A stretch of 63,500 bases of DNA from an uncultured Bacilli bacterium (GCA_934098555.1 CAKOOQ010000002.1:1-63500); one strand, 5' to 3'. Positions 5,808-25,651 are shown, counted from the first letter of the stretch. Numbers and translations are program-made. The notes: a model not told the origin generated them from the letters alone.

Positions 5808-6629
5808 GAGATATTTTGCCATTCTTTCGAGAGTTAATTCCTCTTTTAAAAAATCGGTAATAAGAGACTCAGGTATCCTGTCTGATAAGGTATAACAAAG
5901 TTCTTCATCTTCAGGATTGGCTAAAAATTCGGTAATATACTCCCGTGATAACAGTTCAATAATTAAAACACCTAAAGAAAATTCCGTAATTCTTTTATAA
6001 TCTTCATTCGCGGTTGCTGAATAAATCGCTGAATGTCCATCAATATCAATAATTTGAGGCTCTAGAAAAGGGGTTAACAAAATATTGGTATTTTTACTTT
6101 CCAAAGTAGGATGTTGACATAAATCAATATGATAAATGTGATGACTGGTAAGTTCTTTAACCTCTTCCAAAATTTTCTTGATAATTTTTAGGCGTAAACG
6201 ATACAAAGGAATATTCATGACAGTATAAATATTGGTTGTATGACGGTGATAATATAAAGAACATCCTTTTAACTTTCCATCCACATAAACGGCACTTTGC
6301 GGCAAACGTGTTAAATGAATATCTTTTTGAGCGGCAATTGCCCGAGATATGGATTCTTTTCTCGATAAGCGTACACCTTCTTCGTCAAAATATTGGATAG
6401 TATTATGATGAATGCTTTTGTTTTTAAAATTTTTAATAGGCGTAACGTTAACCCCGTCTTCATCAAACGTTGCGTTTTTAATATCCATTTGCATGCAATC
6501 ATAGTAGGAATGGTAAATTTTTAAAAGTTCATTTTGACTATATTCATAAATGGTTCCTTCGCTACCTTGACCAATTATTTTTAATTTTTGTAAATCTGGG
6601 GTACTTATTTCAATTTTATTCATAATCAT
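5805..6629 (-). CDS. protein-kinase-fold protein (putative)
   Basis: Gly-rich loop IIGQGSEGTIY followed by LLKIY (Lys), a catalytic-loop-like HIDLCQHPTLESKNTNILL, and DIDG in place of DFG. The likely start is MIMNK at 6629, which has an AGAGGA RBS. Confidence 0.45.
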   Translation of the reverse strand: MIMNKIEISTPDLQKLKIIGQGSEGTIYEYSQNELLKIYHSYYDCMQMDIKNATFDEDGVNVTPIKNFKNKSIHHNTIQYFDEEGVRLSRKESISRAIAAQKDIHLTRLPQSAVYVDGKLKGCSLYYHRHTTNIYTVMNIPLYRLRLKIIKKILEEVKELTSHHIYHIDLCQHPTLESKNTNILLTPFLEPQIIDIDGHSAIYSATANEDYKRITEFSLGVLIIELLSREYITEFLANPEDEELCYTLSDRIPESLITDFLKEELTLERMAKYL

Positions 6630-6792
6630 TCCTCTTTGAGAATCTATTATATCTAAAAAAATCTTTTCCAAAGAGAAAATCCTTATTTCTTTACATAATG
6701 TTGACATTTTGAAATTTCCTTACATAAACCCATTTTTAGCTAGTATCTTGGGCCTTTTTTTGGTAAAATATTTAGGAATGAAGGTGATTTAG

Positions 6793-7188
6793 ATGCTTAA
6801 TCGAAGTGAAGCACGTAAAGTTTGTATGACTTGTTTATATCAAATAGATATTTTAAGGCAAAATAAGTTGTCTATTGATATCGATGAAGTCATTAAAGAA
6901 AATTTAGAAATCGAAAATAACTTTGTAAGTCAAGTTGTTAAAGGCGTTACAGAGCATTTAGAAGAGATAGATACATTATGTAATACATATTTAACAAATT
7001 GGAAAATCAATCGTTTAGATAAAACGGGAGCTAATATTTTAAGAATGGCATTTTACGAGTTAAAATATATGGATACGCCTTCTATTGTTGTGATAAATGA
7101 AGCTGTAGAACTTGCTAAAGTATATACGGATAAAGAACTCGCCAATATGATAAATGCGTCTTTAGATAAATATATTAAAGAAGTTTAA
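6793..7188 (+). CDS. nusB: transcription antitermination factor NusB
   Basis: 131 aa. Typical NusB N-terminus (SEARKVCMTCLYQ) and DTPxxVVINEAVELAK motif. Confidence 0.85.
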   Translation: MLNRSEARKVCMTCLYQIDILRQNKLSIDIDEVIKENLEIENNFVSQVVKGVTEHLEEIDTLCNTYLTNWKINRLDKTGANILRMAFYELKYMDTPSIVVINEAVELAKVYTDKELANMINASLDKYIKEV

Positions 7189-7200
7189 AAGGAGTTTGGT

Positions 7201-8547
7201 ATGACAGAAAAGTATTTAAGTATCGTTCAAATCAATAATTACATTAAAAATCTTTTTGATACCAATCTTTATTTAAAAAAAGTCTATTTAAAAGGTGAAA
7301 TCAGTAATTTTAAACACCATTCTTCTGGACATTTATATTTGACTTTAAAAGATGATTCCTCAAGAATTAGTGCCATTATGTTTAAAAGTGCGGCTAGTCT
7401 TTTAAATTTCAAACCGGAAGATGGTATGAATGTTCTTGTAGAGGGAAGAGTTGCTGTTTACCCAGCTGGTGGTAATTATCAAATTTATATTGAAAAAATG
7501 GAACCCGATGGTTTAGGAAATTTATATATAGAGTTTGAAAAACTCAAAAGAAAACTAGCCAGTGAAGGTCTTTTTGATGCTAAATACAAAAAAGAAATTC
7601 CTAAATTTCCTATGCGTATAGGTATTATTACCGCACCGACAGGAGCGGCCATTAAAGATATTTTAAGTACTTTAAAAAGAAGATTTCCCTATGCTAAGAC
7701 CCTTCTTTTTCCTTCTTTAGTACAAGGCTTTTCGGCGGCCTCTTCTATTGCTCAAAATATTTATGAAGCTAACCGATATCGTTTAGATGTTTTAATTGTC
7801 GGGCGCGGAGGAGGCTCTATCGAAGATTTGTGGGCTTTTAATGAGGAAGTTGTCGCACGGGCAATCTTTGCTTCTAAAATACCCATTATCAGTGCGGTTG
7901 GTCACGAAGTCGATTTTACCATTGCTGATTATGTTGCGGATAAAAGAGCTCCAACCCCGACAGGAGCTGCCGAGATGGCCGTGCCAACAAAAGAAGAAGT
8001 AAAAACGCTTTTTAAACAAAAAGAAGAAGAAATTAATCATTTGTTTTTGACCCAGTTAGAAAGTGCTAAACATAATTTTAATACCCTAAAAAATCATTAT
8101 GTTTTAAAAAATCCTCAGATGCTTTACGAAATGAAGATGCAACATTTAGATAATTTGACCGATAATTTACAAAAAAATTATCAATATTATTTAAGTCATA
8201 AACAAAATGAACTTGCTAAGTATAAAAACCATTATGTTCTTAATAATCCAACTATACTTTATCAAAAAGCCTATGAAAACTTAAAAAATGCCCAAGGACG
8301 TTTACAAAAAGAAATAAAAAGTTATCTTTCTGATAAAAGTAAAACACTTTATTATACAATTTTAAATTTAAAACTTTTAAATCCTTTGAATATTTTAGAA
8401 CAAGGCTATGCTATTGTGAAAAAAGATAATAAGATTATTAAGACAACCCAAAATATTAAAATAGAGGATACGTTAGATGTCACTTTGAGTAAGGGGACAT
8501 TAAAAGTGAAAGTAGAGGAGATTCAATATGAAAGAAATGACGTTTGA
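7201..8547 (+). CDS. xseA: exodeoxyribonuclease VII large subunit
   Basis: OB-fold N-terminus (VYLKGEISNFKHHSSGHLYLTLKD), GIITAPTGAAIKD and GRGGGSIEDLWAFNEE motifs. Confidence 0.9.
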   Translation: MTEKYLSIVQINNYIKNLFDTNLYLKKVYLKGEISNFKHHSSGHLYLTLKDDSSRISAIMFKSAASLLNFKPEDGMNVLVEGRVAVYPAGGNYQIYIEKMEPDGLGNLYIEFEKLKRKLASEGLFDAKYKKEIPKFPMRIGIITAPTGAAIKDILSTLKRRFPYAKTLLFPSLVQGFSAASSIAQNIYEANRYRLDVLIVGRGGGSIEDLWAFNEEVVARAIFASKIPIISAVGHEVDFTIADYVADKRAPTPTGAAEMAVPTKEEVKTLFKQKEEEINHLFLTQLESAKHNFNTLKNHYVLKNPQMLYEMKMQHLDNLTDNLQKNYQYYLSHKQNELAKYKNHYVLNNPTILYQKAYENLKNAQGRLQKEIKSYLSDKSKTLYYTILNLKLLNPLNILEQGYAIVKKDNKIIKTTQNIKIEDTLDVTLSKGTLKVKVEEIQYERNDV

Positions 8548-12061: not shown

Positions 12062-13177
12062 ATGGCAAAAAAAGTAATTGTGGGAATGAGTGGGGGAGTT
12101 GATTCCGCGGTTAGTGCTTATTTATTAAAAAAGCAAGGCTATGAAGTAGAGGGTCTTTTTATGCGCAATTGGGACGCAGGTCTTAATAATGATATTTTAG
12201 GGAATCCAACTTTAAATAATAATATTTGTCCTCAAGAACAAGATTATAATGATGCTTTAAAAACATGTGAAATACTTGGCATTCCTCTTCATCGTGTGGA
12301 CTTTATTAAAGAATATTGGGATAATGTTTTTACTTATTTTTTAAACGAATTAAAAAAAGGAAGAACCCCTAATCCTGATTTACTTTGTAATAAGTATATT
12401 AAGTTTGATGTCTTTAAAAAAGAAGCCAAAAAACTGGGTGGTGACTTTATGGCCACGGGGCATTATGTCCGATTAAAAGATGGTTTCCTTTTAAAGGGTG
12501 TGGACGAAAACAAAGATCAAACTTATTTCCTTGCCCAATTAAGTAAAGAACAATTAGAAGATGTTTTGTTTCCCGTTGGAGATTTACATAAAGAGGAAGT
12601 AAGAAAAATAGCCAGTGAATGTGGTCTAAACGTGGCAGCTAAAAAAGATTCGACAGGAATTTGCTTTATTGGTGAAAGAAATTATCAAGAGTTTATTCGC
12701 AATTATTTAAAACCTAATCCTGGAAATGTTGTGAATGTGGAAACAAAAGAAGTGATAGGAAGACACACAGGTCTTATGAATTATACTATTGGTCAAAGAA
12801 GAAATGTAGGTCTTTCGGGATTTCAAGAACGTCATTACGTCTGTGGCAAAAACGTTTCTAAAAATGAACTTTATGTGGCTTTTGGTGATGATTCTAGTTA
12901 CTTAATTAGTGATAGTTGTCTTTTAGAAGATGTCAACTTAACCATCGATAATCCGCCAAAGAAGTGTCAAGCCAAATTTCGTTACCGCGGGGAAGATTAT
13001 CCCATAGAACTTGAAATTTTACCTAATAAAATGGCTAAAGTCATTTATAAAGAAGGCGTTAAAGCCGTAACACCTGGTCAATTTTGTGTTTTCTATGACG
13101 GTGATGTTTGCTTTGGAAGTGGCATTATTAAAGAAATCTACAAAAATGATGAAAAAATATGGTATTTGAATAATTAA
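12062..13177 (+). CDS. mnmA: tRNA 2-thiouridine(34) synthase MnmA
   Basis: PP-loop VGMSGGVDSAV, NPDxLCN and DQTYFL motifs, 371 aa. Confidence 0.95.
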   Translation: MAKKVIVGMSGGVDSAVSAYLLKKQGYEVEGLFMRNWDAGLNNDILGNPTLNNNICPQEQDYNDALKTCEILGIPLHRVDFIKEYWDNVFTYFLNELKKGRTPNPDLLCNKYIKFDVFKKEAKKLGGDFMATGHYVRLKDGFLLKGVDENKDQTYFLAQLSKEQLEDVLFPVGDLHKEEVRKIASECGLNVAAKKDSTGICFIGERNYQEFIRNYLKPNPGNVVNVETKEVIGRHTGLMNYTIGQRRNVGLSGFQERHYVCGKNVSKNELYVAFGDDSSYLISDSCLLEDVNLTIDNPPKKCQAKFRYRGEDYPIELEILPNKMAKVIYKEGVKAVTPGQFCVFYDGDVCFGSGIIKEIYKNDEKIWYLNN

Positions 13178-13277
13178 GAGACCAACATGGCAATTTTAAA
13201 GTTTCTTTTTTATTGATATGATATCTTAGATACATTAAATATTCCGTATGAAAGGGAAGATTATTTTTCCCACTGAA

Positions 13278-13310
13278 GAGAGAGATGAATTTGTATCTCT
13301 CTCATTTTTT
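13278..13310 (+). terminator. rho-independent terminator downstream of mnmA
   Basis: GAGAGAGAT-gaatttgt-ATCTCTCTC followed by TTTTTT. Confidence 0.5.
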
Positions 13311-13362
13311 GTAGTAAAATAAAAGCTTTGCGAAGATTTAATACCATATTAAAAAGTGACTC

Positions 13363-13383
13363 GGCGAAAATTAGGCGAAATTA
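13363..13383 (+). repeat. tandem GGCGAAA(A)TTA repeat upstream of the island's first gene
   Basis: GGCGAAAATTA and GGCGAAATTA are directly abutted, about 5 nt upstream of a TTGAAC -35-like hexamer. Relatively GC-rich for the region. Confidence 0.4.
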
Positions 13384-13441
13384 AGTTTTTGAACTATAAT
13401 AATATGTTATAATATTATTTAGTTATTTTGGGGGTGTTTTA

Positions 13442-13789
13442 ATGTATAAGTTTATAAGTATAATAAGTGCACTAATAAGACAATTCTTATTGCCAAATCC
13501 ATATATAAATTTATTTAGTCAAGAAGTATACGCTGATTTATTCAATATAATAATAGGTGGAATAATTTTACATAAGTTATCATTTTGGCTAACTGGAATG
13601 GCATATACAAGAGGTATTAATGAGCCAGCAGAAGGAAGTATTGGATATTTATTTAGCTATATAATACTAACTTTATTAATTACGTTTCTAAGTAAAATAA
13701 TAAGTAATATTTGGATAATGGTTTGTGCGTTTTTAATTATTTATATTTTGTTTTGTATTGTTGTAAGCAAAACTTTTAACAGACCATAA
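13442..13789 (+). CDS. small 3-TM membrane protein (115 aa), unknown function
   Basis: GGGGG RBS and three hydrophobic helices. It has its own terminator at about 13860-13887. First gene of the low-GC island. Confidence 0.5.
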   Translation: MYKFISIISALIRQFLLPNPYINLFSQEVYADLFNIIIGGIILHKLSFWLTGMAYTRGINEPAEGSIGYLFSYIILTLLITFLSKIISNIWIMVCAFLIIYILFCIVVSKTFNRP

Positions 13790-13859
13790 GTATTTTTAAT
13801 AAATTTAATAAGAATAGCAGACAGATACTCTAAAAAGTGCTATCCTTATAATAGCGATT

Positions 13860-13887
13860 GATACTATTATTATAGTATCTTTTTTTG
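13860..13887 (+). terminator. rho-independent terminator
   Basis: GATACTAT-tatt-ATAGTATC followed by TTTTTTT. Confidence 0.5.
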
Positions 13888-13901
13888 TTAGGAGAAATGT
13901 T

Positions 13902-14849
13902 ATGCAAAAAATACTAAAATCAGGGATGACAATTGGAATATCAATGATGTCTGTTTTAATTCCAGATGTGAAAGAATTAATAATTTCAATAGTAGAGAAA
14001 TTATTTGATTTAGATACAGTTGAAATAAATCCTATTTATTGTAGTGGTTTGGGTTTTTTATTATTTATTATTTGTTTAATTACTTATATTAAATATAATG
14101 ATAGAGATAGAATAATTAACATAGTTGGATTCGGCAATAATGAATATTGGGAAAGAAATAATAAGAACGTTGAGACAATTGATGTAAGAAATTGGTTTAA
14201 TGTAAAAGATAAAGACAAAAATAAGTATTTGAAAAAAGTACTTAATGATTCTGATAATTGTGTTTACAAATATTTAGCTTCTGGCTTATCTTACACTGCA
14301 ATAGCTCCTATACCATTAGTTTCAATTATTGGGAGACACTTTTCCAAAATAAAAATAAATAATTATTATGAATATTTAAATAAAAGTTCGAATGTAAAAA
14401 AAATAAATAACTCAATATTTTTTCCTAGATTAAAACTGGAAATTACAAATAAAGATAGTTCTAATGAATACGCGTTGATATCGGTTAGCACCACAGCAAA
14501 TATTAAAAAGCATCAAATAGCACAATTTGGAGATTGTTTACACTATAATACTTACATTTCAAATCCACATCAAAACTCAATTTATTCGAAGAAGCAACTG
14601 TTTAATTATTGCAATAAAATAATTGAACAAATAAATGAAATTAGTGCTTTAAAAGAAATAAAAAGAATTTATATAGTCTTTGCAACTCAATCACCCTTAC
14701 CATTCGAAATTGGTAAACAACTAAACGATAGGATGGCAAAAGAAGTTATTATTTGTCATTATCAAAACGATTCTTGCGTTCCTTATGAGTGGGGAATAGC
14801 TCTAAATGGAAAAAATAAAGAAAAATATATTGACTTAAAGAAGGTATAA
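13902..14849 (+). CDS. TM-SAVED-like CBASS effector (putative)
   Basis: AGGAG RBS. N-terminal hydrophobic segments (strong helix at aa 45-64). The C-terminal 240 aa or so contain two copies of the CARF/SAVED-like strand-Pro-helix-Gly pattern (AIAPIPLVSIIGR at aa 133-145, YIVFATQSPLPFEIGKQL at aa 257-274) and end in a Y/W-rich strand. The stop is 1 nt from the cyclase ATG. Confidence 0.55.
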   Translation: MQKILKSGMTIGISMMSVLIPDVKELIISIVEKLFDLDTVEINPIYCSGLGFLLFIICLITYIKYNDRDRIINIVGFGNNEYWERNNKNVETIDVRNWFNVKDKDKNKYLKKVLNDSDNCVYKYLASGLSYTAIAPIPLVSIIGRHFSKIKINNYYEYLNKSSNVKKINNSIFFPRLKLEITNKDSSNEYALISVSTTANIKKHQIAQFGDCLHYNTYISNPHQNSIYSKKQLFNYCNKIIEQINEISALKEIKRIYIVFATQSPLPFEIGKQLNDRMAKEVIICHYQNDSCVPYEWGIALNGKNKEKYIDLKKV

Positions 14850-14850
14850 A

Positions 14851-16242
14851 ATGGCAATAAAATTAGAAGATTTGAAAAAAGTTGATTTTTCACAAATGTT
14901 AAATACATTTTATATAAACAATGTAATTCTACCTTTAGAAAAAGTCGAAGAACTTAAAGAGAAGAAAGATTTAAATATTAGAAGATTAAAAGAGGGATTA
15001 GAAGAGTATAACATAGAAAATTCTACGGAATACAAAATAGATGAGTTTGTACTTCAAGGTAGCATTGCTATGGGTACTGCAGTATCAGCAGATGAAAAGA
15101 ATTATGATATTGATATAGGTGTTATTATGGATAAATCTGCTTTACCAGATGGTACATTGAGTGCTAAAAAAATAATATCGGAATCTTTGAAGAAGAAATG
15201 TTATAACATGAAAAACAACCCAGACCCAAATGGTAATAGTATTACAATTGAATATGAAGAAGGTTATCATTTGGATTTTGCACTTTATGGTAAGAAAGAT
15301 AAAAAATATTATCATTGTGGAACAACAAGTTGGGATGAAAGAAATCCTAAGGCTATTTCTTGGTGGTTTAATAATCAAAATCAAAAGTATAATAATAGAT
15401 TGCAAATGATGACTAAGTTCTTAAAATTTTTTTGTAAGCAAGATAGTGATTGGATAATGCCGGGCGGTTTAATAATAAGTGTTTTAGTAGATGAAGCTAT
15501 AAAAAAAGAAGACTTATCATTATCATACGATGTTTTATTAAAGAATATTGTAAATAGTATTGTTAAAAGATTAAGATATGATAAGAGTGTATATAATCCT
15601 GTTAATTTAAGTAAGAATCTAATTGTAAAACAAAAAGATGTGCAAAAATTAAAGAATTTACATAATAGGTTAGAAAATAGGATTACAAAAGTTAACAATT
15701 TAACAATTAATAGTACAAGCGTAGAAATATACGAGGCTTGGAATTATTTCTTTGGTGAAGAATATTTTTCTGATGATTTTGAATTAAAAATAATACAATG
15801 TGAAGATAATGAAGAATATATAAATACCTATTTTGATATTTTAAGAGATAATAACACTAATAATTTGATTAAATGCCAATTATCATCTAAAGAAGGAAGT
15901 ACTGATGGTAGAACTATTAGAAATTATGAATCTAATATGCCTTTAAGTGTTTCTAGGTATAAAGATGAGCGACTAATATTTACAGCTCATCCGATGATTT
16001 CAGGACAGTATACAATATTATGGAAAATTAGAAATAATGGAAAAAAGGCTGTAGAGAATAATTCATTACGTGGAAATATAGTTTATTCTAATACTGCTTA
16101 TAATTTTAACTATATTGATATAAATGGAAATACAAGATATGAAAATATATCTTTTCCAGGTCATCATTATATTGATTGTTATGTAATAAAGGATGACTAT
16201 GTTATTCAATCGGAAAGATTTTTAGTGAATTTAACAGAATAA
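14851..16242 (+). CDS. CD-NTase/SMODS-type cyclic (oligo)nucleotide synthase with C-terminal AGS-C-like sensor domain
   Basis: Pol-beta NTase signature G70-S71...(14 aa)...D86-I-D88 and third acidic residue D142 (HLDFALY). SMODS-like helix NPKAISWWFNNQNQKYNNRLQMMTKFLKFF. C-terminal 170 aa beta-rich domain with YTILWKIRNNGKKAVENNSLRGNIV ... FPGHHYIDCYVIKDDYVIQ. Confidence 0.7.
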   Translation: MAIKLEDLKKVDFSQMLNTFYINNVILPLEKVEELKEKKDLNIRRLKEGLEEYNIENSTEYKIDEFVLQGSIAMGTAVSADEKNYDIDIGVIMDKSALPDGTLSAKKIISESLKKKCYNMKNNPDPNGNSITIEYEEGYHLDFALYGKKDKKYYHCGTTSWDERNPKAISWWFNNQNQKYNNRLQMMTKFLKFFCKQDSDWIMPGGLIISVLVDEAIKKEDLSLSYDVLLKNIVNSIVKRLRYDKSVYNPVNLSKNLIVKQKDVQKLKNLHNRLENRITKVNNLTINSTSVEIYEAWNYFFGEEYFSDDFELKIIQCEDNEEYINTYFDILRDNNTNNLIKCQLSSKEGSTDGRTIRNYESNMPLSVSRYKDERLIFTAHPMISGQYTILWKIRNNGKKAVENNSLRGNIVYSNTAYNFNYIDINGNTRYENISFPGHHYIDCYVIKDDYVIQSERFLVNLTE

Positions 16243-16467
16243 ATAGTATTTATTTAAAATATGGAACACTTTAAATAAATATAATATGTTTTATTAATAA
16301 AAAAGTTTTCGTTAATCTGAAATATGCTAGATTAAATGTGGGAACTTCCTTTATTTTGCTTACAGACTTACAATTAAAAGTTATATTAATAATTATCAAG
16401 CTGGTTACTTTATTTGAAAAAACAAGTTATAATATTTAATCGTACATTATAAGGTAAGGTTGATAGT

Positions 16468-16869
16468 ATGGCTAATATATTCAGAGTAGTAAAAGATAAA
16501 AACTATACAATTGTTAATAATGAATATTTAAAGAATAAAAATCTTAGAGTAGATAGTATAGGATTATTAACTATAATACTATCATTACCATCAGACTTTA
16601 ATATAACTATCAAAGGTTTAATTAGTCTTACACATCAAAAAGCAAATTATAGAGCTATTAAAGTAATGCTTGATAATTTAAAAGAAAATGGTTATTTAGA
16701 AATAACTAAGTTAAGAGATGAAAAAGGTCATTTTTTCTTTAACTATATATTTTTTGAAAGTAATAGACCTAATCCACTATACACTTTTTATATAGTGGAC
16801 GACGCTAATCAGAGTGTTATAAACGATAATAAAACTAATTCTCCACTACCAGCAAAAAAGGAGTGGTAA
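16468..16869 (+). CDS. winged-helix DNA-binding protein of the phage/plasmid replication-organiser N-terminal type
   Basis: Pattern F-x-V...YTIVNNEYLKNKNL...IGLLTIILSLPSDFNITIKGL...LKENGYLEITKLRDEKGHF is typical of Firmicutes mobile-element wHTH proteins. Confidence 0.5.
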   Translation: MANIFRVVKDKNYTIVNNEYLKNKNLRVDSIGLLTIILSLPSDFNITIKGLISLTHQKANYRAIKVMLDNLKENGYLEITKLRDEKGHFFFNYIFFESNRPNPLYTFYIVDDANQSVINDNKTNSPLPAKKEW

Positions 16870-16905
16870 GTATAGGGCGTTTTGATTTTCTTTGTTTACT
16901 TTTAC

Positions 16906-16935
16906 TTGACACAAAAGTGTCTAGTGCTTTATAAT
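16906..16935 (+). promoter_or_regulatory. promoter with overlapping palindromic operator
   Basis: TTGACA-18 nt-TATAAT. The perfect palindrome GACAC-aaaa-GTGTC (16908-16921) overlaps the -35 and spacer. Confidence 0.5.
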
Positions 16936-16974
16936 TGAGTTGTAAAATATAAATAAAGAGAGTAGGCAAAGATA

Positions 16975-17769
16975 ATGAACAGATTAAACGAATTATTACA
17001 AGAATTAGGAATTTCCAAAGTGCGATTGGCTAAATATTTAGGTGTATCAAGACAGATGGTTTATAATTATCTTGAACTTGATGACATTAATAAATGGCCT
17101 AAAGAAAAGAAAATTTTGCTTTACCGTTTACTAGATATTAATGATGATAAAAATCAATCTATTGATTCCATAAAAGTAACAACCGATTATCTTATGAGTG
17201 TTGAAAATAGATTAAATACCGGTGTTAAAGGAACTACCAATATTTCTAACTATTTTGACTTAAAGAATTTAAATAAAGAATCTCAAATTCTTATCACCAA
17301 CATTTTAAATTTACTAAGAGAAAGGTTAGGGGATGATAAGAAAAAACAAGAAAATTATTATGCCTTTTTATACCTTTATCATATGCTTCAATCTATGGAC
17401 AATGTTCCTGAAATAAAATATATTTTTGGATATATGTCAAAGGCTACGGGATTCACAAATCCGGAAGAATTTAAGTTTAATGAAGATAGACAATTTATCT
17501 TTGAAGGAATTTTGTACTCTGCCCTAACGCTTTATAACAATGGGGGAGCCTCACGTAGCAAACTTGCCCTATCGCATAAACGGTTTGTTCAAGAGATAGA
17601 AAAACAAAATGAAGAAAAATTAAGTCGTACCCAACAATTATTTACTTTGAGAACACAAGCTTTAAAGGAATTAGGCTATACAGAGATGAATGAATCTAAT
17701 GCCTCAGAAATTATAGAAAAAATTGCCGAAATTGAATCACGTGGTTCAATTATGAATGCTGACGAATAA
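16975..17769 (+). CDS. HTH (XRE-like) DNA-binding protein with 200-aa C-terminal domain
   Basis: N-terminal LNELLQELGISKVRLAKYLGVSRQMVYNYL helix-turn-helix. The rest is unrecognised. Confidence 0.6.
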   Translation: MNRLNELLQELGISKVRLAKYLGVSRQMVYNYLELDDINKWPKEKKILLYRLLDINDDKNQSIDSIKVTTDYLMSVENRLNTGVKGTTNISNYFDLKNLNKESQILITNILNLLRERLGDDKKKQENYYAFLYLYHMLQSMDNVPEIKYIFGYMSKATGFTNPEEFKFNEDRQFIFEGILYSALTLYNNGGASRSKLALSHKRFVQEIEKQNEEKLSRTQQLFTLRTQALKELGYTEMNESNASEIIEKIAEIESRGSIMNADE

Positions 17770-18025: not shown

Positions 18026-18053
18026 AAGTTGCATAATATATATTATGTTAACC
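18026..18053 (+). other. dif-like XerC/XerD recombination site (attL of prophage)
   Basis: AAGTTGCATAA-TATATA-TTATGTTAACC. The central hexamer is identical to B. subtilis dif. The right arm matches TTATGT(A/T)AA of the B. subtilis and E. coli dif XerD arms. The left arm ends in GCATAA as in E. coli dif. Reference sequences are quoted from memory. Confidence 0.6.
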
Positions 18054-18068
18054 GTGATATTTTAAATT
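18040..18068 (+). repeat. 29-bp direct repeat, left copy (att core)
   Basis: ATATTATGTTAACCGTGATATTTTAAATT is identical to 26124-26152. Confidence 0.9.
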
Positions 18069-18346
18069 AAATGCAGTTCGCTATACTGCTCTTGTTCTCT
18101 TTTTTTATAGATTTCTAAAAGTTCGATACGTTGTTTTATTAATTCTTTATAAAACATAAGTTCTTTCATAGAATAACACGACAACATTGCATAGCGTTTG
18201 TAATATTCATGATGACCATAAACCTTACAAAAATTATAAGCGCATACTAACAAATCATATCGATTTTTTAAATAAGTTAAATTATTACAAGAACTAACTT
18301 CTTTTACAAACTTCTTTTCATTTTCAGATAAACCTTTATACATCAT
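18062..18346 (-). CDS. phage hypothetical protein (94 aa)
   Basis: ORF overlapping the Rep stop by 11 nt. Last gene before attL. Confidence 0.45.
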   Translation of the reverse strand: MMYKGLSENEKKFVKEVSSCNNLTYLKNRYDLLVCAYNFCKVYGHHEYYKRYAMLSCYSMKELMFYKELIKQRIELLEIYKKREQEQYSELHLI

Positions 18347-18965
18347 AGTAAGACATTACCCTTTCATACGGCTCATTATGTTTTTGCAAAGCCCTTATAA
18401 ATGTCACAGTCGAACGTCTATAAATATCATACAAACCATTTAAAGCCACATACCTAACAAAATCTTGTTCATCTAAGTAACCAACAAAACTATCAATGTA
18501 ATCCAACAATTCTAAAACCTTTTCACTCTCATCTTTACCGGAATTTTTAATATAATTTTTTAACTTTTGTTTGAGACTACCCTGCACATTTCTAACGTCA
18601 TATTGATACTTATCAGGTTCATTATAATGAATCAAATAAAGTAAACTACGTTCTAAACTTCGACATTTTTGTATATAATTAATTTCAATACCTAAATCTT
18701 TAGCTAAAGCCGAATTCCATACTGGATTATTAAAACGGATAACAACATGTGTATGAACTTTTTTTAGATTTCCATCTTCATCTAAATCACTATCATGATT
18801 AATCGAAGCATAATCGTATGAACGTTTTACAATCTCAATTGCTTCTTTATGGCTTTCGTCCTCATTTGGATAAAGTAACAAGCAAAACTTTCTATCTCTA
18901 AACTTTTCAATAGCCAAACTATCACCCTCCCCTATTTTGACACAAATTTTTTTAAATTGACACAA
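18336..18965 (-). CDS. rolling-circle replication initiator (HUH endonuclease, plasmid Rep_2/RepB-like)
   Basis: HUH motif KKVHTHVVI (H71-T-H73) and Tyr motif SLLYLIHYNE about 40 aa downstream. TTG start with no clear RBS, so the start is uncertain. Confidence 0.7.
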   Translation of the reverse strand: MCQFKKICVKIGEGDSLAIEKFRDRKFCLLLYPNEDESHKEAIEIVKRSYDYASINHDSDLDEDGNLKKVHTHVVIRFNNPVWNSALAKDLGIEINYIQKCRSLERSLLYLIHYNEPDKYQYDVRNVQGSLKQKLKNYIKNSGKDESEKVLELLDYIDSFVGYLDEQDFVRYVALNGLYDIYRRSTVTFIRALQKHNEPYERVMSYYDV

Positions 18966-19436
18966 TGGTATGTGTCAGAAAAAAGCCTTTATTTATCGTA
19001 CTTAATAGACCTTTGACACATGACACACAGATTGCTATTAGTCGTAGTATAGCAATCTATAATTTATAATCTTTTATATTATAATATTTATATTATTAAA
19101 TTACTTATATATTAAATAATTTAATTTTTTAGCTGGTTAGGTGCGAAAGCACGATTATAACATCAAAAAGAGATAATTATAAAAACAGTTCATTAAAATT
19201 TTTTTGATATTGCTTTTTGTAACAAGATAGATACTCTTTTTAATGTTAAAAAATTATACTTGCTTCCACTTCGTCAAGGCTATTGCAGTTATCAAGCAGA
19301 ATATCAACGAAGCAGCAAAACCTTGACAAAGATACGAATTTCTTTCAAATAAGTTTTTAAAAAATGGATTAAGTTCTATTAAATTAATAACCAGCTTAAA
19401 AAATCATAAAGATTGCTATTTTGTTGTATATAAAAA
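18966..19436 (-). other. phage intergenic region (candidate origin / packaging-signal hairpins)
   Basis: Non-coding 470 bp with GACAC/GTGTC repeats, the hairpin GATTGCTAT-N10-ATAGCAATC (19030-19057), the GC-richer hairpin GTCAAGG...CCTTGAC (19273-19327), and inverted AGCTGGTTA copies at 19130 and 19388. Confidence 0.45.
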
Positions 19437-19718
19437 CTAGCTTGCATTAATTGGCAATTTTCGAATAATCCACATCGAAAAATGATAAATATGATCAAAA
19501 TTCGCGGCTAAAATTACTAAAGGAACTAGCGTTTTAATCGTCGAAATACGAACAAAAAAACCTAATAAATCCAAATGATCAAAAATAAGATTAACAAAAC
19601 CGTTAAGACTTGTTAAAATTGAAACATCTAGTTGAGGTAAACTTGGCAACACAGCAAAAATCAAATCAACTAATAATTTAGCTAAATCTAATATAAAAGT
19701 TGTAACCATCACTATCAA
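19437..19718 (-). CDS. small polytopic membrane protein (pVI-like minor coat candidate)
   Basis: 93 aa, very hydrophobic. It overlaps the stop of the upstream large gene by 4 nt, the position expected for pVI. Confidence 0.4.
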   Translation of the reverse strand: MIVMVTTFILDLAKLLVDLIFAVLPSLPQLDVSILTSLNGFVNLIFDHLDLLGFFVRISTIKTLVPLVILAANFDHIYHFSMWIIRKLPINAS

Positions 19719-21499
19719 ACCTTCTTTCGATTTCTATATTCACGATGAGTTTTATGGGCTGTAACAGATTGATGAACTTGATTATTATCATCAATTGTAT
19801 AATTTTGACTAGCTGATAAAATATCCGTTTCAAACGTATCATTATTACCAAAAACACGATTATAAATATTAGAACAATAATTAAAAAAACTTAACATCAG
19901 CAAAGCATCTACACACATCAAATAAATATCATGCATATTTTTAATATTACTATCATTTAACAAACTAGCTAAATCAAACGAGCCGGCCGAAATGATTGTT
20001 CCGTCAAAATTAGCAACTTTAAAATCAGGCCACGAAATCACATAAGAACCAGTATCCGTCAACTCGGTAAATCTTTCTAAAAATGTAATTATCCAAGTAA
20101 AAGGATAACTTAAAAAGCCAAATTGATTAGTTAAACTCTCATTCACGCCTTTAAACCAGTTCGAAAGGTCCTCTTTTGAAGGAACAAACAAAGACCTCAA
20201 CATATTGCGAAAATTAGACCAAAAATCCTCTGTACTTTTTTTAAAAGAATCAAAAAAGTTAGAAATTGTGTCTGCAACAACCTCATTCGAAGACTTTGAA
20301 GTAAAATTATAAGTTGCCTTAGCAACATTACCATTTGAATCAACAATTCTAAAATATAAAGTATGTTTACCAAAATTAACATTACTAAACGTATAATGAT
20401 TCGTTGGAATATCAATCCAAGAACCATCGTCAAGTTTCAAATAGTATTTTTCAATTTTACCAGACATGGCATAACTATCACGTAAATCGACATAAATATT
20501 ACTATCATTATAAGAAACAATATAACGTAAAACCGGTAACAAAGATGTTTTAACATCAACATTAAAAGTTGAAAGAGGTGTATTTGAACCGTCTTTATAA
20601 ACGGCTTTTGCTGTACCAGAATAAGAACCATTACTAAAACCGGTTAGCGTTACAGATTTCTCAGTCGTATAAACATAATCATAGCTACCCAATGTATAAT
20701 AATATCCAACAACGTTATCCTCATCTGTAGCATTAAAATTTAATGTGATATCCGAACCACTAACCGAACTTGTTACATTTAAAAGACCTAAGTTATCACT
20801 TTCATAATTAATATCTGATGAAAGATATAAATAATATATATTTTCAATATAATCCGTTGCAGAATCCGTTTGAGCATATGCTTTATTATCTAAATCAACA
20901 AACAAACTAAAGAATTCAATATATTTTTTAGGAACACGACAACTAATCACAGCACTCGGAAAATCAGAATTGGAGCTTGTTGTTAAACAATCATATGGCT
21001 TATATGTTTCGTTATTTGCATCACCAAACCTCGATTGCACACTAAAATGTAATCTATTAAAAATTTGATAGCTTTCAAAAATACCGGCTTGTATTTCATT
21101 ATTTTTTGCTGAAGCATACATTCTAAAATATAAAGTATAAAAATTATTATCATTTGAAAGTATTCCTTGATTAAAAAAATTTTCATAAGAAAAACGATAA
21201 GAATTTGTTGTTAAATAATAATCTGTTAACTCATTTGCTTTTACATAAACAGGAATACGATAACCTGTAAAATTTGGATACAAATTACTTATTTTTTTAT
21301 CATTTAAATAATCAAGTTTCAAATAATCAAGGTTAGAATAATTAAAGTTTTGATAAGTATCAGAATTATTAAACCTATAATAAAGATATTTAGGTCTTAT
21401 CTGAACAGGAGTTAAAGCATTAACATGAGTAATATCAAAAAATAAAGTTACGACACTCAATGTTGCAAATATAAAAATCGTTTCTAATATTCTTTTCAT
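19715..21499 (-). CDS. large secreted phage protein (pIII-like adsorption / minor coat candidate)
   Basis: 594 aa with an N-terminal signal peptide (IFIFATLSVVTLFF...VNA), Ig/Fn3-like beta-rich repeats in the middle and a C-terminal hydrophobic segment. Confidence 0.45.
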   Translation of the reverse strand: MKRILETIFIFATLSVVTLFFDITHVNALTPVQIRPKYLYYRFNNSDTYQNFNYSNLDYLKLDYLNDKKISNLYPNFTGYRIPVYVKANELTDYYLTTNSYRFSYENFFNQGILSNDNNFYTLYFRMYASAKNNEIQAGIFESYQIFNRLHFSVQSRFGDANNETYKPYDCLTTSSNSDFPSAVISCRVPKKYIEFFSLFVDLDNKAYAQTDSATDYIENIYYLYLSSDINYESDNLGLLNVTSSVSGSDITLNFNATDEDNVVGYYYTLGSYDYVYTTEKSVTLTGFSNGSYSGTAKAVYKDGSNTPLSTFNVDVKTSLLPVLRYIVSYNDSNIYVDLRDSYAMSGKIEKYYLKLDDGSWIDIPTNHYTFSNVNFGKHTLYFRIVDSNGNVAKATYNFTSKSSNEVVADTISNFFDSFKKSTEDFWSNFRNMLRSLFVPSKEDLSNWFKGVNESLTNQFGFLSYPFTWIITFLERFTELTDTGSYVISWPDFKVANFDGTIISAGSFDLASLLNDSNIKNMHDIYLMCVDALLMLSFFNYCSNIYNRVFGNNDTFETDILSASQNYTIDDNNQVHQSVTAHKTHREYRNRKKV

Positions 21500-21502
21500 A
21501 CT

Positions 21503-22069
21503 CTACCTCCTTCTTTTAAACTCAATAGCTAAAAATATTAATAAAATAGCTATAGTAATCATTAAAAAATATGGTTTTAATTCATCTAATGTTAAACCAT
21601 TTGTTGAAGCGTTTGTATCGTTTGATGAATTATCATTAACTTTTTTATCGTGATAATTTGTTACGTATGAACCATTAAAACTCAAATTAGACCAACCAGA
21701 CGTGCTTTTATAAGTAGAATAAATACCTAATGAATCTTGCTCAAAAATATAACACTGCGCGGTCAAATGACCGTTAAATGAAGAACGATTAACACTAAAA
21801 GAAGAACCAGAACCAGTTTTATGATTGGTAGATGTAATAGCATCATCATTTAAAAAACATAAACGTAATTGTTTATCAGATTCAAGAACAGTACGACCTA
21901 TAACATAATAATCTAAAAATGAAGAATACGAAAACCAAAGTTCCCTTTTAGCAAACGTCTCAACATAATCGGGTACATCGTAAAACTTAAAAGTAGATGC
22001 ACTAACAGAAATTGTTTGAAGTGATAAAGATATAATCATAATGGATAAAAAATAAATAATCTTACGCAT
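21503..22069 (-). CDS. phage membrane-anchored secreted protein
   Basis: Likely start at MRKIIYFLSIMIISLSL (signal peptide). C-terminal TM plus basic tail (FLMITIAILLIFLAIEFKRRR), a coat-protein-like topology. Confidence 0.45.
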   Translation of the reverse strand: MRKIIYFLSIMIISLSLQTISVSASTFKFYDVPDYVETFAKRELWFSYSSFLDYYVIGRTVLESDKQLRLCFLNDDAITSTNHKTGSGSSFSVNRSSFNGHLTAQCYIFEQDSLGIYSTYKSTSGWSNLSFNGSYVTNYHDKKVNDNSSNDTNASTNGLTLDELKPYFLMITIAILLIFLAIEFKRRR

Positions 22070-22073
22070 ATTA

Positions 22074-22226
22074 TCACAATACTTTCTTTTTATTACCACC
22101 GATAAAGTCAAGCATTAAATTAATTAATCTGTTAGCAATTTCAAAAACTAAATAAATTGGAAAAGCTACAACAAGTAAAGAAGCAATGCAATTAACAATA
22201 ACTTGGTAATCAACGTTTACTATCAT
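22074..22226 (-). CDS. small TM protein (50 aa) overlapping the 3' end of the pI ATPase gene, unannotated
   Basis: The ATG lies inside the last codons of the ATPase gene in another frame. Product MIVNVDYQVIVNCIASLLVVAFPIYLVFEIANRL... Confidence 0.3.
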   Translation of the reverse strand: MIVNVDYQVIVNCIASLLVVAFPIYLVFEIANRLINLMLDFIGGNKKKVL

Positions 22227-22935
22227 AAATATCAACACCTTTACTTTCAATTTTTAAATTTTTGTTTTCAATAACTTTATAAGTATCAAACCTTTTAAAC
22301 GACAAAGGATTTTTAAAGTATCTAAATACCCTTTTGACGGTACCTTTTAAATTCGTTCCAGTACTCTCTTCACCGTCAATACTATTTCGGTCGATAAGAC
22401 TATTTTTTTGTAAAAAACCAAATAGCTTTTTTTCACAATAAATTACAACATCAAATTGCTCACGTAACTGTTTGGCCATCCGGCCAAACACTTGACTCGT
22501 AGCAACAATATGAATACGTTGTTTACGTTGTTGAGCTATTTGAGTCATAACATCCATATCAATATTTTTGCTACCTAATGAATTAAAATAAAGTTGAATC
22601 TCATCGATTAAAAAGATAACTCCTTGTTTACCATTTTTATACTTCGTTAAATCCTTTGCTTCTTGAAATAAAAATACTCGTTCATTATCAAAAGGATAAT
22701 CTGTTAGTTCTAAATTCGTAACAATTTTACAATTAGGATACAACTTTAACAATTTATATACATAATTTACAGCTGATAAAGTTTTACCAGAACCTTGAGG
22801 CCCACAAAAAATACAAAGGCCATCAGGTCGAAAGTAATCAGGATTTTCTCTATAAAAATCACGTTGATACTTAAGTTGTTTAAAAATATTTAAAGGCCCT
22901 AGCTTTTCTTTTAAAGCATAAGCACTAACCGCCAT
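22210..22935 (-). CDS. Zot/pI-like morphogenesis ATPase (inovirus hallmark)
   Basis: Walker A GPQGSGKT (aa 45-52) and Walker B VIFLIDEIQ. At 241 aa it has no TM segment of its own. Confidence 0.75.
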   Translation of the reverse strand: MAVSAYALKEKLGPLNIFKQLKYQRDFYRENPDYFRPDGLCIFCGPQGSGKTLSAVNYVYKLLKLYPNCKIVTNLELTDYPFDNERVFLFQEAKDLTKYKNGKQGVIFLIDEIQLYFNSLGSKNIDMDVMTQIAQQRKQRIHIVATSQVFGRMAKQLREQFDVVIYCEKKLFGFLQKNSLIDRNSIDGEESTGTNLKGTVKRVFRYFKNPLSFKRFDTYKVIENKNLKIESKGVDIYDSKR

Positions 22936-22943
22936 AAAATCAC

Positions 22944-23033
22944 CTACTTATTTTTATGAAAAATTTTATTCCAAGCCCAATTAAAAAACTTGTATATTAA
23001 AAATACTAAAAAGAAACTTAACAGGCTACTCAT
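22944..23033 (-). CDS. 29-aa hydrophobic peptide (pVII/pIX-like candidate), unannotated
   Basis: MSSLLSFFLVFLIYKFFNWAWNKIFHKNK. Its stop abuts the RBS of the ATPase gene. Confidence 0.3.
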   Translation of the reverse strand: MSSLLSFFLVFLIYKFFNWAWNKIFHKNK

Positions 23034-23037
23034 AACA

Positions 23038-23241
23038 TCATTCATCTTTTTGCTCCTCTCTTTTCTCATCAATTTTCTTACTTAAATTTTTAAGCAATGC
23101 TTTTCTTTCTGGTTTACTTAATTTATTAAATTTATGTAGCAAAACATATAAATACTCTAATTGGTCTAAAGTTAAATTATCTAAATTATTCATAATCACT
23201 AAATTTTTAGAAAAAAAGGAATGATAAAACACGCATATCAC
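23038..23241 (-). CDS. phage hypothetical protein (67 aa)
   Basis: ORF in the structural block. No family recognised. Confidence 0.4.
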   Translation of the reverse strand: MICVFYHSFFSKNLVIMNNLDNLTLDQLEYLYVLLHKFNKLSKPERKALLKNLSKKIDEKREEQKDE

Positions 23242-23259
23242 TCCTAATTTTCCAACGTA

Positions 23260-23475
23260 TTATAAACGAATACGTCCAGCCGCAACAGCGCTTGTGAAAG
23301 CATTAACAGCTTTACGAACTCCTAACCAAAGTAAGAAGAAGCCCATACCTACACCAACAACAGAAGCTAAAACATTTAAAACTTGAGCTGTAGTAATAGA
23401 ACTTGTTAGCGCTGTAATGAAAGCAGTAAAATCAATCGTTGTAGGTTGAGTTTCTTGAGATGCTTCCATAGACAA
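23260..23475 (-). CDS. major coat protein-like (pVIII-like)
   Basis: 71 aa with an acidic/polar N-terminal part, an Ala/Val/Gly-rich TM helix (VLASVVGVGMGFFLLWLGV) and a basic C-terminus (RKAVNAF...GRIRL). GGAGG RBS. Noticeably GC-richer than its neighbours. Confidence 0.6.
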   Translation of the reverse strand: MSMEASQETQPTTIDFTAFITALTSSITTAQVLNVLASVVGVGMGFFLLWLGVRKAVNAFTSAVAAGRIRL

Positions 23476-23653
23476 ACCTCCTTTTCATTCTTTTTGTCCT
23501 TTTTTATAAAAAAGGAGCGTCTTACTAAAAGCGGTCAAACAGTAAGATAACAGTTTATAAGCTGCTGGTTTTTAATTTTAAGTATATTAGAATAAAAGAG
23601 TTTATAAGATAAAAATATATATAAATTTTTACTTAAAATCACCGCAAATTTTT

Positions 23654-23923
23654 TTAATATCGTTTATTTTTATTTTTTTCAACATAAATATAAACAACTT
23701 TACGACCAAAATGTTTTTTGAACCACAAACGAATACTTCGAAAAAAATATTTAATCTTAGTTTTTAAATTTCTAGAGGGTTTAAGATTGTAATAGCCTAT
23801 ATATTCTTCACCAAAACCATTATAGCTACCAATTTTCAAAGGTATTGAATCTTTATAAGGTTCATAACCAAATCTACATCTATAACAATCATGATTGTAA
23901 CTATAATAAATTAATAATCGCAT
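23654..23923 (-). CDS. phage hypothetical basic protein (89 aa)
   Basis: ORF overlapping the upstream gene. Lys/Arg/Tyr-rich. Confidence 0.35.
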   Translation of the reverse strand: MRLLIYYSYNHDCYRCRFGYEPYKDSIPLKIGSYNGFGEEYIGYYNLKPSRNLKTKIKYFFRSIRLWFKKHFGRKVVYIYVEKNKNKRY

Positions 23924-24197
23924 TGTTATACTTAATACCAGTAATTTTAGTCTTTGGCTTCATTGGATTCATAGGATTTTCAACGGTTTCAACCATTAAA
24001 GTGCATTCCTTGTTTACCATTTTTTCATCAAGCTTATCAAAAGCAGTAATCGGCAAAAATGCATAAAGTACAATGTATCCTTTTACCTTTTCAGATTTAC
24101 AAGGCTTATCGGTTGCAATATAATCGATTCTTGTATAAGGTTCTTTACCTTTCGGACAACATTTTGTTATCGTTGTCAAATTAACTTTTAATTCCAT
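23901..24197 (-). CDS. phage protein, possible ssDNA-binding (pV-like) by size and position only
   Basis: 98 aa, GGAGCG RBS, located upstream of the coat genes. No motif-level support. Confidence 0.3.
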   Translation of the reverse strand: MELKVNLTTITKCCPKGKEPYTRIDYIATDKPCKSEKVKGYIVLYAFLPITAFDKLDEKMVNKECTLMVETVENPMNPMKPKTKITGIKYNNAIINLL

Positions 24198-24253
24198 TTT
24201 TTACGCTCCTTTTCTATCTTTTGTTTTATGGCACAAAAGCTAAAGCCAAGAAA

Positions 24254-24469
24254 TTACCAGAAACCTCTATTAGGCGAATAAACAACATTATTTACATAAA
24301 CATTCTCTAAATGAAGTTGATTCAAAAGAATATTGAAAAATTTTAAAGCTTGTTCTTTTGTTTTAAAATGAAAAGTTGCGAATGATAAATTACCGTCTAA
24401 AAAATGAATTTTAATAAACCTATCATCTAGCTCCAAAATGTGTAAATAATTATCATTTATAAAATACAT
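24254..24469 (-). CDS. phage hypothetical protein (71 aa)
   Basis: ORF overlapping the upstream gene by 13 nt. Confidence 0.4.
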   Translation of the reverse strand: MYFINDNYLHILELDDRFIKIHFLDGNLSFATFHFKTKEQALKFFNILLNQLHLENVYVNNVVYSPNRGFW

Positions 24470-24957
24470 ACGTCTTTTTTTACAAGATTAATTGACTTAT
24501 TTAAAACATCACGACACAGGTTTACAGCTTCGGTTTTATCACAAAAAGAAAATTCAATTTCATCTAAACCAGAAGAGTCATTAAAGCCTAATTTGATAAT
24601 ATACAAGCCTAAAGCGTCTTTATAAGCTTTAATAAATTTCACTTTTAAATAATCAATAGTAAATTCCATATCCTCAACTACTTCCTCAACTTCCTCATCA
24701 GTCATACATAAAAACTTTTTAATAATATATCTTACATCCGAATATGATTTACAAGTACCGTCATATAAATAAATGTAGCCCTCTTCACCAGTTAAAATAT
24801 CAAAAGCTTTTGCCATTTCGGAATCGGAATCACAAAAGTAAACACAATAAGCATTTATAAAGTTTTCATATGTTAAGTCAATGTCGTTTTCTTTCATATA
24901 ATCGTTAACTTTTCTCATATTCATCATTTCATAAACAATATTAATCATCTTTATCAC
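24457..24957 (-). CDS. phage hypothetical protein (166 aa), first gene of the leftward operon
   Basis: AGGAGTGA RBS. Divergent from the XRE gene. Confidence 0.45.
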   Translation of the reverse strand: MIKMINIVYEMMNMRKVNDYMKENDIDLTYENFINAYCVYFCDSDSEMAKAFDILTGEEGYIYLYDGTCKSYSDVRYIIKKFLCMTDEEVEEVVEDMEFTIDYLKVKFIKAYKDALGLYIIKLGFNDSSGLDEIEFSFCDKTEAVNLCRDVLNKSINLVKKDVCIL

Positions 24958-24962
24958 TCCTT

Positions 24963-25002
24963 TTATATACGTTTAACGCATTTATATATCAATTATATAC
25001 GT
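24963..25002. promoter_or_regulatory. candidate operator repeats in the phage switch region
   Basis: TTATATACGT occurs twice, 30 bp apart (24963 and 24993), between the divergent genes. Confidence 0.35.
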
Positions 25003-25062
25003 GTGACGTTTACTTGTCAATACGCAATAAGTATATTTTGTAAAATAACTTTGGTGAGGAAA

Positions 25063-25296: not shown

Positions 25297-25307
25297 AAGA
25301 GGAAAAA

Positions 25308-25460: not shown

Positions 25461-25537
25461 AAAAAGATTGCCTAAAACCAATTTGCAATCTTAAAATAAA
25501 GGACTTATTTTTCAAGCATCAATAGGAGGTGACAACA

Positions 25538-25630: not shown

Positions 25631-25651
25631 AACATCGATAATTAATTAAGC

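Follow-up and report, generated by a model that had tools for sequence, protein, structure and literature searches.

What function do two adjoining genes serve that pair a nucleotidyltransferase with a membrane-anchored receptor in an uncultured gut bacterium, and how did they come to lie beside the terminus of its chromosome? This question is raised by positions 13442-16242 of a 63,500-nucleotide stretch of DNA from an uncultured Bacilli bacterium (GCA_934098555.1 CAKOOQ010000002.1:1-63500), here termed the window. Three open reading frames (ORFs) occupy this region on the + strand, with the coordinates and lengths claimed in an earlier note on the same DNA: a small membrane gene (13442-13789; 115 aa), a cap14-type effector gene (13902-14849; 315 aa; N-terminal membrane module and C-terminal SAVED domain), and a cdnB-type gene for a cGAS/DncV-like nucleotidyltransferase (CD-NTase; 14851-16242; 463 aa; nucleotidyltransferase core and AGS-C domain). 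We have high confidence that the latter two, at 13902-16242, constitute an intact type I operon of CBASS (an anti-phage system that signals through cyclic oligonucleotides), of the cap14-cdnB kind, carried as horizontally acquired cargo of an exchange slot. The TAA stop codon of cap14 (14847-14849) is followed by one spacer base and then by the ATG of cdnB at 14851, which bears out the junction described earlier; this 1-nt gap, together with a GAAGG motif upstream of the cdnB ATG, indicates that the two genes are probably translationally coupled.

The 463-aa protein has the architecture of a CD-NTase, with a core at residues ∼12-310 and an Ig-like beta domain (AGS-C) at residues ∼319-462. The Pol-beta/CD-NTase pattern proposed for it (G70, S71, D86-I87-D88, and D142) is present, aligns with the equivalent motif of 7LJO, and is invariant at the G/S, DxD, and D positions in 17 homologs that share 31-98% identity. 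Profile hidden Markov model searches, which the earlier note had recommended, gave significant matches above the Pfam curated cut-offs for the CD-NTase, AGS-C, and SAVED families; for this protein they comprise Pfam DncV-like_NTFase (PF21654; E = 1.9e-11; 45.2 bits vs. a cut-off of 24.9) and Pfam AGS_C (PF18134; residues 319-460; E = 1.1e-18; 67.9 bits vs. a cut-off of 26.7), and the PADLOC oligonucleotide-cyclase model (Cyclase PDLC00778) aligns over residues 12-461 (E = 3.5e-112). An AlphaFold2 model built from the 17-sequence alignment is confident (pLDDT 88.5; pTM 0.88), and the top 50 Foldseek matches of this model in the PDB are all CD-NTases, with a probability of 1.00; the first is 7LJO (E = 6.8e-15; TM-score 0.81 normalized on the target), whose chain is also the top PDB match by sequence (7ljo_A; E = 7.2e-10). 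Beta strands appear at residues 340-462 of the model, and the beta-rich C-terminal 140-145 residues lie outside the Foldseek matches. The previously noted C-terminal extension is indeed AGS-C by profile and beta-rich in the model, at a length of ∼145 aa and not ∼170 aa. The name AGS-C reportedly goes back to work by Burroughs in 2015. Among the best matches, BfCdnB (7LJO), which belongs to clade B04 (PMC10442399), comes first and DwCdnB next, while CdnG and DncV are far weaker. Judged by its sequence and predicted fold, the protein is a CD-NTase whose closest characterized relatives belong to clade B.

The 315-aa product of the upstream gene matches Pfam SAVED (PF18145; residues 130-301; E = 4.9e-21; 75.8 bits vs. 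a cut-off of 26.2), NCBIfam SAVED (NF033611; E = 3.6e-18; 66 bits vs. 33), and two PADLOC models over almost its full length (“Effector 2TM,” E = 2.6e-39; “SAVED_TM,” E = 9.9e-38). Its PDB matches by sequence are solved TM-SAVED chains (9wq2_B, E = 8e-23; 9om7_F, E = 3.1e-21; TM, transmembrane), and the duplicated CARF-like motifs singled out earlier align at conserved positions of both, in support of the SAVED similarity previously proposed for the C-terminus. From hydropathy, the N-terminus consists of an amphipathic hairpin motif (∼8-38) and a single, strongly hydrophobic TM helix (∼42-66). Comparison of N-termini places the protein in a short Cap14 subfamily (313-315 aa; the window and comparison loci L001-L008) that begins at the amphipathic inter-TM motif and is missing the first TM helix of the typical, 353-389-aa Cap14, a protein that joins an N-terminal module of two TM helices (Saf-2TM) to SAVED; the PADLOC and PDB alignments correspondingly start ∼30-40 positions into their references, with the “2TM” model entered at position 39. 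The earlier expectation of one or more N-terminal TM segments is therefore accurate for one helix, and the first helix of a typical Cap14 is absent. Taken on its sequence matches, the 315-aa protein belongs to the Cap14 family of SAVED receptors anchored in the membrane.

Accessory genes of other CBASS types were sought with Pfam and PADLOC among the neighboring genes (the 115-aa gene, a 133-aa ORF, a 264-aa helix-turn-helix gene, and mnmA), and no Cap2/Cap3 (E1/E2/JAB), HORMA, TRIP13, or nuclease gene was found there, in agreement with the earlier note. The absence of Cap2/Cap3/HORMA genes identifies the pair as type I CBASS, and that note's reading of a TM-SAVED effector with a CD-NTase is thus supported by profile, fold, and sequence matches. 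In order to place the pair among its relatives, a search with the cyclase alignment was made in species-representative genomes, from which 80 loci were fetched of 202 confirmed hits, and in metagenome contigs. A SAVED gene lies directly upstream of the cyclase, on the same strand, in 49 of the 49 loci with a Cap14-like gene detectable by tblastn. The effector-first order observed here is hence the family norm and no peculiarity, and the same applies to the AGS-C fusion, which is typical of clade B (bioRxiv 10.1101/2023.05.21.541620). The 1-nt junction is kept in relatives with a cyclase 62-67% identical to that of the window (L001, L003), even though their flanks are unrelated. Such flanks, with an integrase, Mob_Pre, and an AAA_21/RloB pair among their genes, are what one would expect around mobile defense cargo. 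The nearest genome is that of another uncultured gut Bacilli (L006, a metagenome-assembled genome; 98% identity); the CBASS proteins of the window are likewise 98% identical to counterparts in other samples, and one cluster of the cyclase family has 135 member sequences.

The earlier note regarded the nucleotide signal and the sensor domain as uncharacterized. This no longer holds for the CdnB/Cap14 family, for which the signal, 2′,3′-cGAMP (a cyclic GMP-AMP), and the effector mechanism are published. The gene cdnB is usually partnered with cap14 in two-gene type I operons; BtCdnB and CbCdnB (from Bacillus thuringiensis and Clostridium botulinum) make 2′,3′-cGAMP, which the SAVED domain of Cap14 binds; and the B. 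thuringiensis operon, when placed in Bacillus subtilis, confers >10^4-fold phage protection that needs the DID active site (PMC10402079). A 2026 review (PMC13434031), summarizing the studies of Gao (2026) and Tak (2026), describes ligand-induced filaments of TM-SAVED/Cap14 that shear or permeabilize the membrane. Clades B and H carry AGS-C almost ubiquitously, type I CBASS of clade B nearly always includes it, and a correlation exists between the domain and phage range (bioRxiv 10.1101/2023.05.21.541620). If events are modeled on those in B. thuringiensis and C. botulinum, phage infection would cause the cyclase to make a cyclic dinucleotide, for which 2′,3′-cGAMP is the likeliest candidate, with the AGS-C domain probably tuning which phage cue acts as the trigger. 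The SAVED domain would bind this molecule, and Cap14 would oligomerize into filaments and breach the membrane by means of their membrane modules; the resulting membrane failure would kill or arrest the cell before phage maturation (i.e., abortive infection). Expression of cap14-cdnB would come from a conserved leader owned by the flanking element and not by the cargo.

Several observations weigh against so close a reading by analogy. The NCBIfam equivalog models for CBASS cyclases match the 463-aa protein under their cut-offs (82.8 bits vs. 150), which means that it is no equivalog of those specific subfamilies, and its assignment to clade B comes from best hits, with no tree. Clade B enzymes may also vary in nucleotide use, as DwCdnB has been crystallized with several nucleoside triphosphates (PDB titles). 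Given that the cyclase is 30-38% identical to the fetched relatives from the Bacillus/Clostridium group, and that the BtCdnB and CbCdnB sequences lay outside this comparison, 2′,3′-cGAMP is not established as its product; by analogy, the chances that the product would be exactly this molecule are about even. The membrane mechanism could differ in detail from that of characterized Cap14 proteins, since their first TM helix is missing here, and since the element around the pair is cut short in the window, the regulatory context may be incomplete. The evidence for the locus itself is that of sequence and model. With these reservations, the locus is an ordinary, divergent addition to the characterized CdnB-Cap14 type I CBASS family.

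The manner in which the pair was acquired can be read from its flanks. As noted previously, the block is AT-rich: GC content is 24.8% over 13267-16856, compared with a window mean of 30.0% (standard deviation 2.3%), the second lowest of 300 equal-sized windows. A 3.6-kb block occurs at 97% identity in unrelated contexts, and when the window was compared by blastn with loci that have close homologs of the small gene, a sharply modular structure emerged. The left part, from 13267/13269 to 13904/13919, is 92-97% identical in seven loci of unrelated context; it contains a hairpin, a promoter, the small membrane gene, and a leader, and runs up to the ATG with which the first cargo gene begins. On the right, homology to loci with other cargo returns at 16231-16244, where cdnB stops, and extends into a DnaD-like replication gene. 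Between these flanks, the cargo is swapped exactly from ATG to stop codon: cap14-cdnB in the window, L006, L096, L097, and L100; a CD-NTase-Cap15 pair in L086, L098, and L099; a gene for a 577-aa protein in L101 and L102; and a 241-aa gene with a GajA-like ATPase in L103. A 1235-aa STAND gene stands behind a variant leader in L105-108. A second, deeply diverged family of elements has the order [MqsR-like][MqsA-Panacea][small membrane gene] - cargo - [98 aa][TnpV], in which Dodola, an unknown pair, cap14-cdnB, or a PycTM+TIR module fills the cargo position; the small proteins of the two element families share only 24-32% identity. A 118-aa gene that precedes the MqsA/Panacea gene was considered as a further homolog of the small protein and rejected, as its product is soluble and toxin-partner-like. 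We found no description in the literature of this particular flank and its start-codon-precise junction. The CBASS pair is horizontally acquired cargo in a defense slot of a phage-like element remnant beside the chromosome terminus.

The constancy of the left flank bears on a second question, namely whether the system has two genes or three. In the latter case the 115-aa membrane protein would be a functional CBASS component, be it a partner, an immunity factor, or a regulator of Cap14. Its AlphaFold2 model (pLDDT 86.5; helices at 2-16, 28-54, 62-86, and 90-112) has an N-terminal helix and three membrane-length helices, in accordance with the three TM segments reported earlier. The gene lies directly upstream of cap14 on the same strand; homologs precede cap14-cdnB in three settings that are independent and deeply diverged (L024 and L061; L031 and L148; and the window group); and the Cap14 encoded here is the variant without its first TM helix, all of which speak for a third component. 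However, the small gene is found upstream of cap14 in only four of the 49 cyclase-fetched loci with a detectable cap14, it is absent from L001-L005 (the closest other short-Cap14 members, with a 62-67% identical cyclase), and it also accompanies full-length, two-TM Cap14 (L024, L031), which means that it is no substitute for the missing helix. Moreover, at 85-97% identity it precedes other systems entirely: a CBASS of CD-NTase and Cap15 followed by a NERD protein (L086), the 577-aa gene, the GajA-like ATPase (L103), and the 1235-aa STAND NTPase (L105-109). More distant homologs precede DolA + AAA (Dodola; L087-90), the unknown 355+481-aa pair (L091-94), or a PycTM-like + TIR module (L139-143), and others neighbor Fic + Cas9 (L114), UvrD+NERD (L127), or a type II methyltransferase (L131). 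In many loci the small gene instead follows, starting 1-3 nt after a gene for an 886-1115-aa protein (some nSTAND3-like) that is itself preceded by HsdR/methyltransferase genes. Members of the family are thus almost always among defense genes of many kinds, which marks the small gene as a defense-island resident and not a CBASS subunit. The possible role in CBASS that the earlier note left to this protein is accordingly not upheld: the gene is a conserved slot flank common to other defense systems, this comparative context led us to reject it as part of the CBASS, and a three-gene system is improbable.

The function of the small protein was sought by comparison with databases. No model in Pfam, PADLOC, NCBIfam, or PHROG matches it, Foldseek of its model against the PDB and BFVD gives no match with E below 1, and tblastn against PLSDB plasmids returns no relatives. 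A profile search grouped it with ∼119-aa proteins in a family that comprises at least 215 clusters; in IMG/VR, one relative was found with the profile of the close subfamily and none with that of the distant subfamily, and the protein therefore does not look typically phage-borne. We tentatively suggest, as an idea that is considerably more likely wrong than right, that the family is an active, previously undescribed part of defense-gene exchange slots in gut Firmicute elements, where it might form a “plug-in” expression platform together with its promoter and leader, or might itself act as a stand-alone, membrane-based exclusion gene. In the window its C-terminus reads ...KTFNRP*, as opposed to ...KTFNRHNYF* in the closest relatives (13775-13789), and a small change at the 3′ end of the gene is the likely cause.

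The remaining base-level features of the left flank, all on the + strand, outline how the slot may be expressed. Its first conserved bases form a hairpin with a T-run at 13269-13310 (GAGAGAGAT-N6-ATCTCTCTC, followed by TTTTTT). Homology in eight other loci begins at 13267-13269 (or slightly farther upstream in L086, by a few bases before the hairpin), beyond which the sequences are unrelated, and no target-site duplication or terminal inverted repeat is evident at this left boundary. The stem shows compensatory changes in L100 (GAGAGCGAT/ATCGCTCTC) and L086, folds at -14.4 kcal/mol (z = -2.6), and is the sole terminator-like site in a scan of the region; it probably acts as a terminator and shields the block from transcription that arrives from upstream. 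Although it looks like the terminator of mnmA, the hairpin is in fact where the conserved sequence of the mobile block starts. The direct repeat GGCGAAAATTA/GGCGAAATTA stands at 13363-13383, just before the promoter of the small gene, and is conserved with a few substitutions in nine related loci. The tandem GGCGAAA(A)TTA repeat described earlier is thus real, although it has two copies only and falls below the threshold of Tandem Repeats Finder; it is possibly an operator or UP-like element. The extended -10 promoter-like element TGTTATAAT (13405-13413), invariant in nine loci, is inferred from its sequence to act as the promoter of the small gene; a consensus scan also lists TTGAAC-18-TATTAT at 13389-13418. 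Across the region, this sigma-70 scan gave 31 sites vs. 32.5 expected and is uninformative in such AT-rich DNA, and Rfam returned no match at E ≤ 1 over 13100-17000, including the leader hairpin and flanks.

The cargo leader (13838-13901) is conserved up to the ATG, whether the first cargo gene is cap14, a CD-NTase, the 577-aa gene, or the 241-aa gene. It comprises a conserved -10-like element, TGCTATCCT/TATAAT (13838-13852; TATAAT at 13847-13852), a hairpin GATACTAT-TATT-ATAGTATC (13860-13879; -10.8 kcal/mol; z = -2.7), a T-run (13880-13886), and a ribosome-binding site, AGGAG (13890-13894). The first -10-like box of the leader reads TATCCT in the window and TATACT in the others, an A-to-C change. 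Separate termination of the three-TM gene, as proposed before, finds a matching hairpin and T-run at 13860-13886, yet because TATAAT lies just upstream, the same structure could just as well form the 5′ leader from which the cargo operon is read. Behind the conserved TGCTATACT/TATAAT box, the hairpin could serve as an attenuator or as a 5′-stabilizing stem of the cargo mRNA.

On the right, an AT-rich inverted repeat (I13; 16231-16297, + strand; 28-nt arms, 79% complementary) straddles and follows the cdnB stop and marks the start of the flank; its fold is weak (z = -1.2), and it may be a terminator. The 133-aa ORF at 16468-16869 (+) is the truncated 5′ part of a DnaD-like replication/helicase-loader gene: it has no Pfam or NCBIfam match, by tblastn it matches phage genes for a “DnaD-like helicase loader” and for replication initiators, its ortholog in L097 is 267 aa long, and a gene resembling that for single-stranded DNA-binding protein comes next in L100 and L101. 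As L097, L099, L100, and L101 remain mutually homologous past 16856 where the window diverges, this position was rejected as the end of the element and is instead a window-specific recombination breakpoint inside the DnaD-like gene. The element is hence a remnant in this genome, and the cassette might in turn be a decaying, non-functional relic within it. The break at 16856, the changed leader box, and the altered C-terminus of the small protein agree with decay; the cassette itself does not, as both CBASS ORFs are full length and retain every invariant catalytic residue, the ribosome-binding site, TATAAT box, and gene coupling are intact, and the 98% identity to counterparts in other samples and the 135-member cyclase cluster count against decay as well. 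We regard decay as very unlikely, and retain the reading of an intact CBASS operon.

Some CD-NTases, such as DncV, were first tied to physiology. A housekeeping pair in cyclic-nucleotide signaling (e.g., of membrane potential or stress) would draw further on the still poorly defined activating cue of type I CBASS (bioRxiv 10.1101/2023.05.21.541620), but this explanation has next to no chance of being correct, given that the pair is low-GC mobile cargo, interchangeable with other defense systems in its slot, patchily distributed with no conserved chromosomal synteny seen across a lineage, flanked in relatives by restriction-modification, toxin-antitoxin, AbiE/RloB-type, and integrase/Mob genes, and homologous to the phage-protective B. 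thuringiensis system (PMC10402079).

The surroundings of the CBASS operon place it at a distinctive position of the chromosome. The cumulative GC skew peaks at ∼17500-17750, where gene orientation switches from + to -, consistent with a replication terminus. The dif-like site mentioned earlier is represented by dif-like repeats, the nearest of which begins 1.8 kb downstream of cdnB. Two direct repeats of 35 nt (18037-18071 and 26121-26155), which are 94% identical, bound an ∼8.1-kb element at 18037-26155. Their core, ATATTATGTTAACC, resembles the dif site of B. subtilis in its center and XerD arm. Within this element are genes on the - strand for a Rep_OBD protein of rolling-circle replication type (18336-18965) and a Zot/pI-like ATPase (22210-22935), along with unannotated ORFs of 594 and 202 aa; owing to the Rep_OBD protein and the Zot/pI-like ATPase, the element is probably filamentous-phage-like and integrated at dif by Xer recombination. 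A gene for an XerC/D-like recombinase lies at 28262-29170 (-). Separately, the 264-aa protein with an N-terminal helix-turn-helix (16975-17769), encoded between the truncated element and the dif-like site, is preceded by a perfect (12/12) sigma-70 consensus, TTGACA-18-TATAAT, at 16906-16935.

The locus adds a divergent gut-Bacilli member to the CdnB-Cap14 family, which matters for its combination of a mammalian-type signal, 2′,3′-cGAMP, with a filament-forming membrane effector. Beyond the known family, two points are worth keeping: the Cap14 variant without its first TM helix, and the cargo-exchange slot that has a small, unannotated membrane gene at its flank. The former, as a natural variant, could help define the minimal membrane-disrupting module. 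As for the latter, ATG-to-stop swaps of cargo offer a “guilt-by-slot” handle on new defense genes in uncultured gut Firmicutes, and the slot illustrates the reshuffling of immune cargo among mobile elements close to the replication terminus. The 577-aa protein (L101:684-2417) and the 355+481-aa pair (L091:5438-6505 and 6523-7968) have no Pfam or PADLOC match; a 272+278+528-aa trio (L095:6344-9637) has no PADLOC match and was outside the Pfam run. These unmatched cargos are, by position, candidate new defense systems, as the 577-aa and 355+481-aa cargos in particular would be if the small gene is indeed a component of the slot.

Compared with characterized systems, the locus is most similar to the CBASS of B. 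thuringiensis 407 (BtCBASS) and its C. botulinum counterpart: each is a two-gene operon of cap14 then cdnB in a Firmicute host, with a cGAS-like CD-NTase and no Cap2/Cap3/HORMA genes. It differs from them in its host, an uncultured gut Bacilli lineage, and in its Cap14, which has 315 aa vs. 369-376 aa and is without the first TM helix; the solved chains that match this protein (9WQ2_B and 9OM7_F; ∼1e-22) are not confirmed as belonging to the cited Cap14 studies. For the cyclase, BfCdnB (7LJO) is the best match in both sequence and structure, and its GS/DxD/D site aligns, while identity is ∼20%; as the 7LJO chain (290 residues in the fold library) omits AGS-C, none of the hits offers a solved counterpart to residues 320-463 of the window protein. 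With respect to type I CBASS CD-NTases fused to AGS-C, the ∼145-aa, beta-rich C-terminal domain on a clade-B-like cyclase is nothing distinctive. The slot is best compared with the P2/P4 hotspots, in which, according to Rousset et al. (2022; PMC9122126), phage or satellite flanking genes bracket a site with anti-phage systems that vary among strains. Here too, conserved mobile-element flanks bracket varying defense cargo; unlike those hotspots, the host is a gut Firmicute, the flank on the left consists of a small, unannotated membrane gene and a leader conserved as far as the start codon of the cargo, and homologs of this gene flank the slot in two deeply diverged families of elements.

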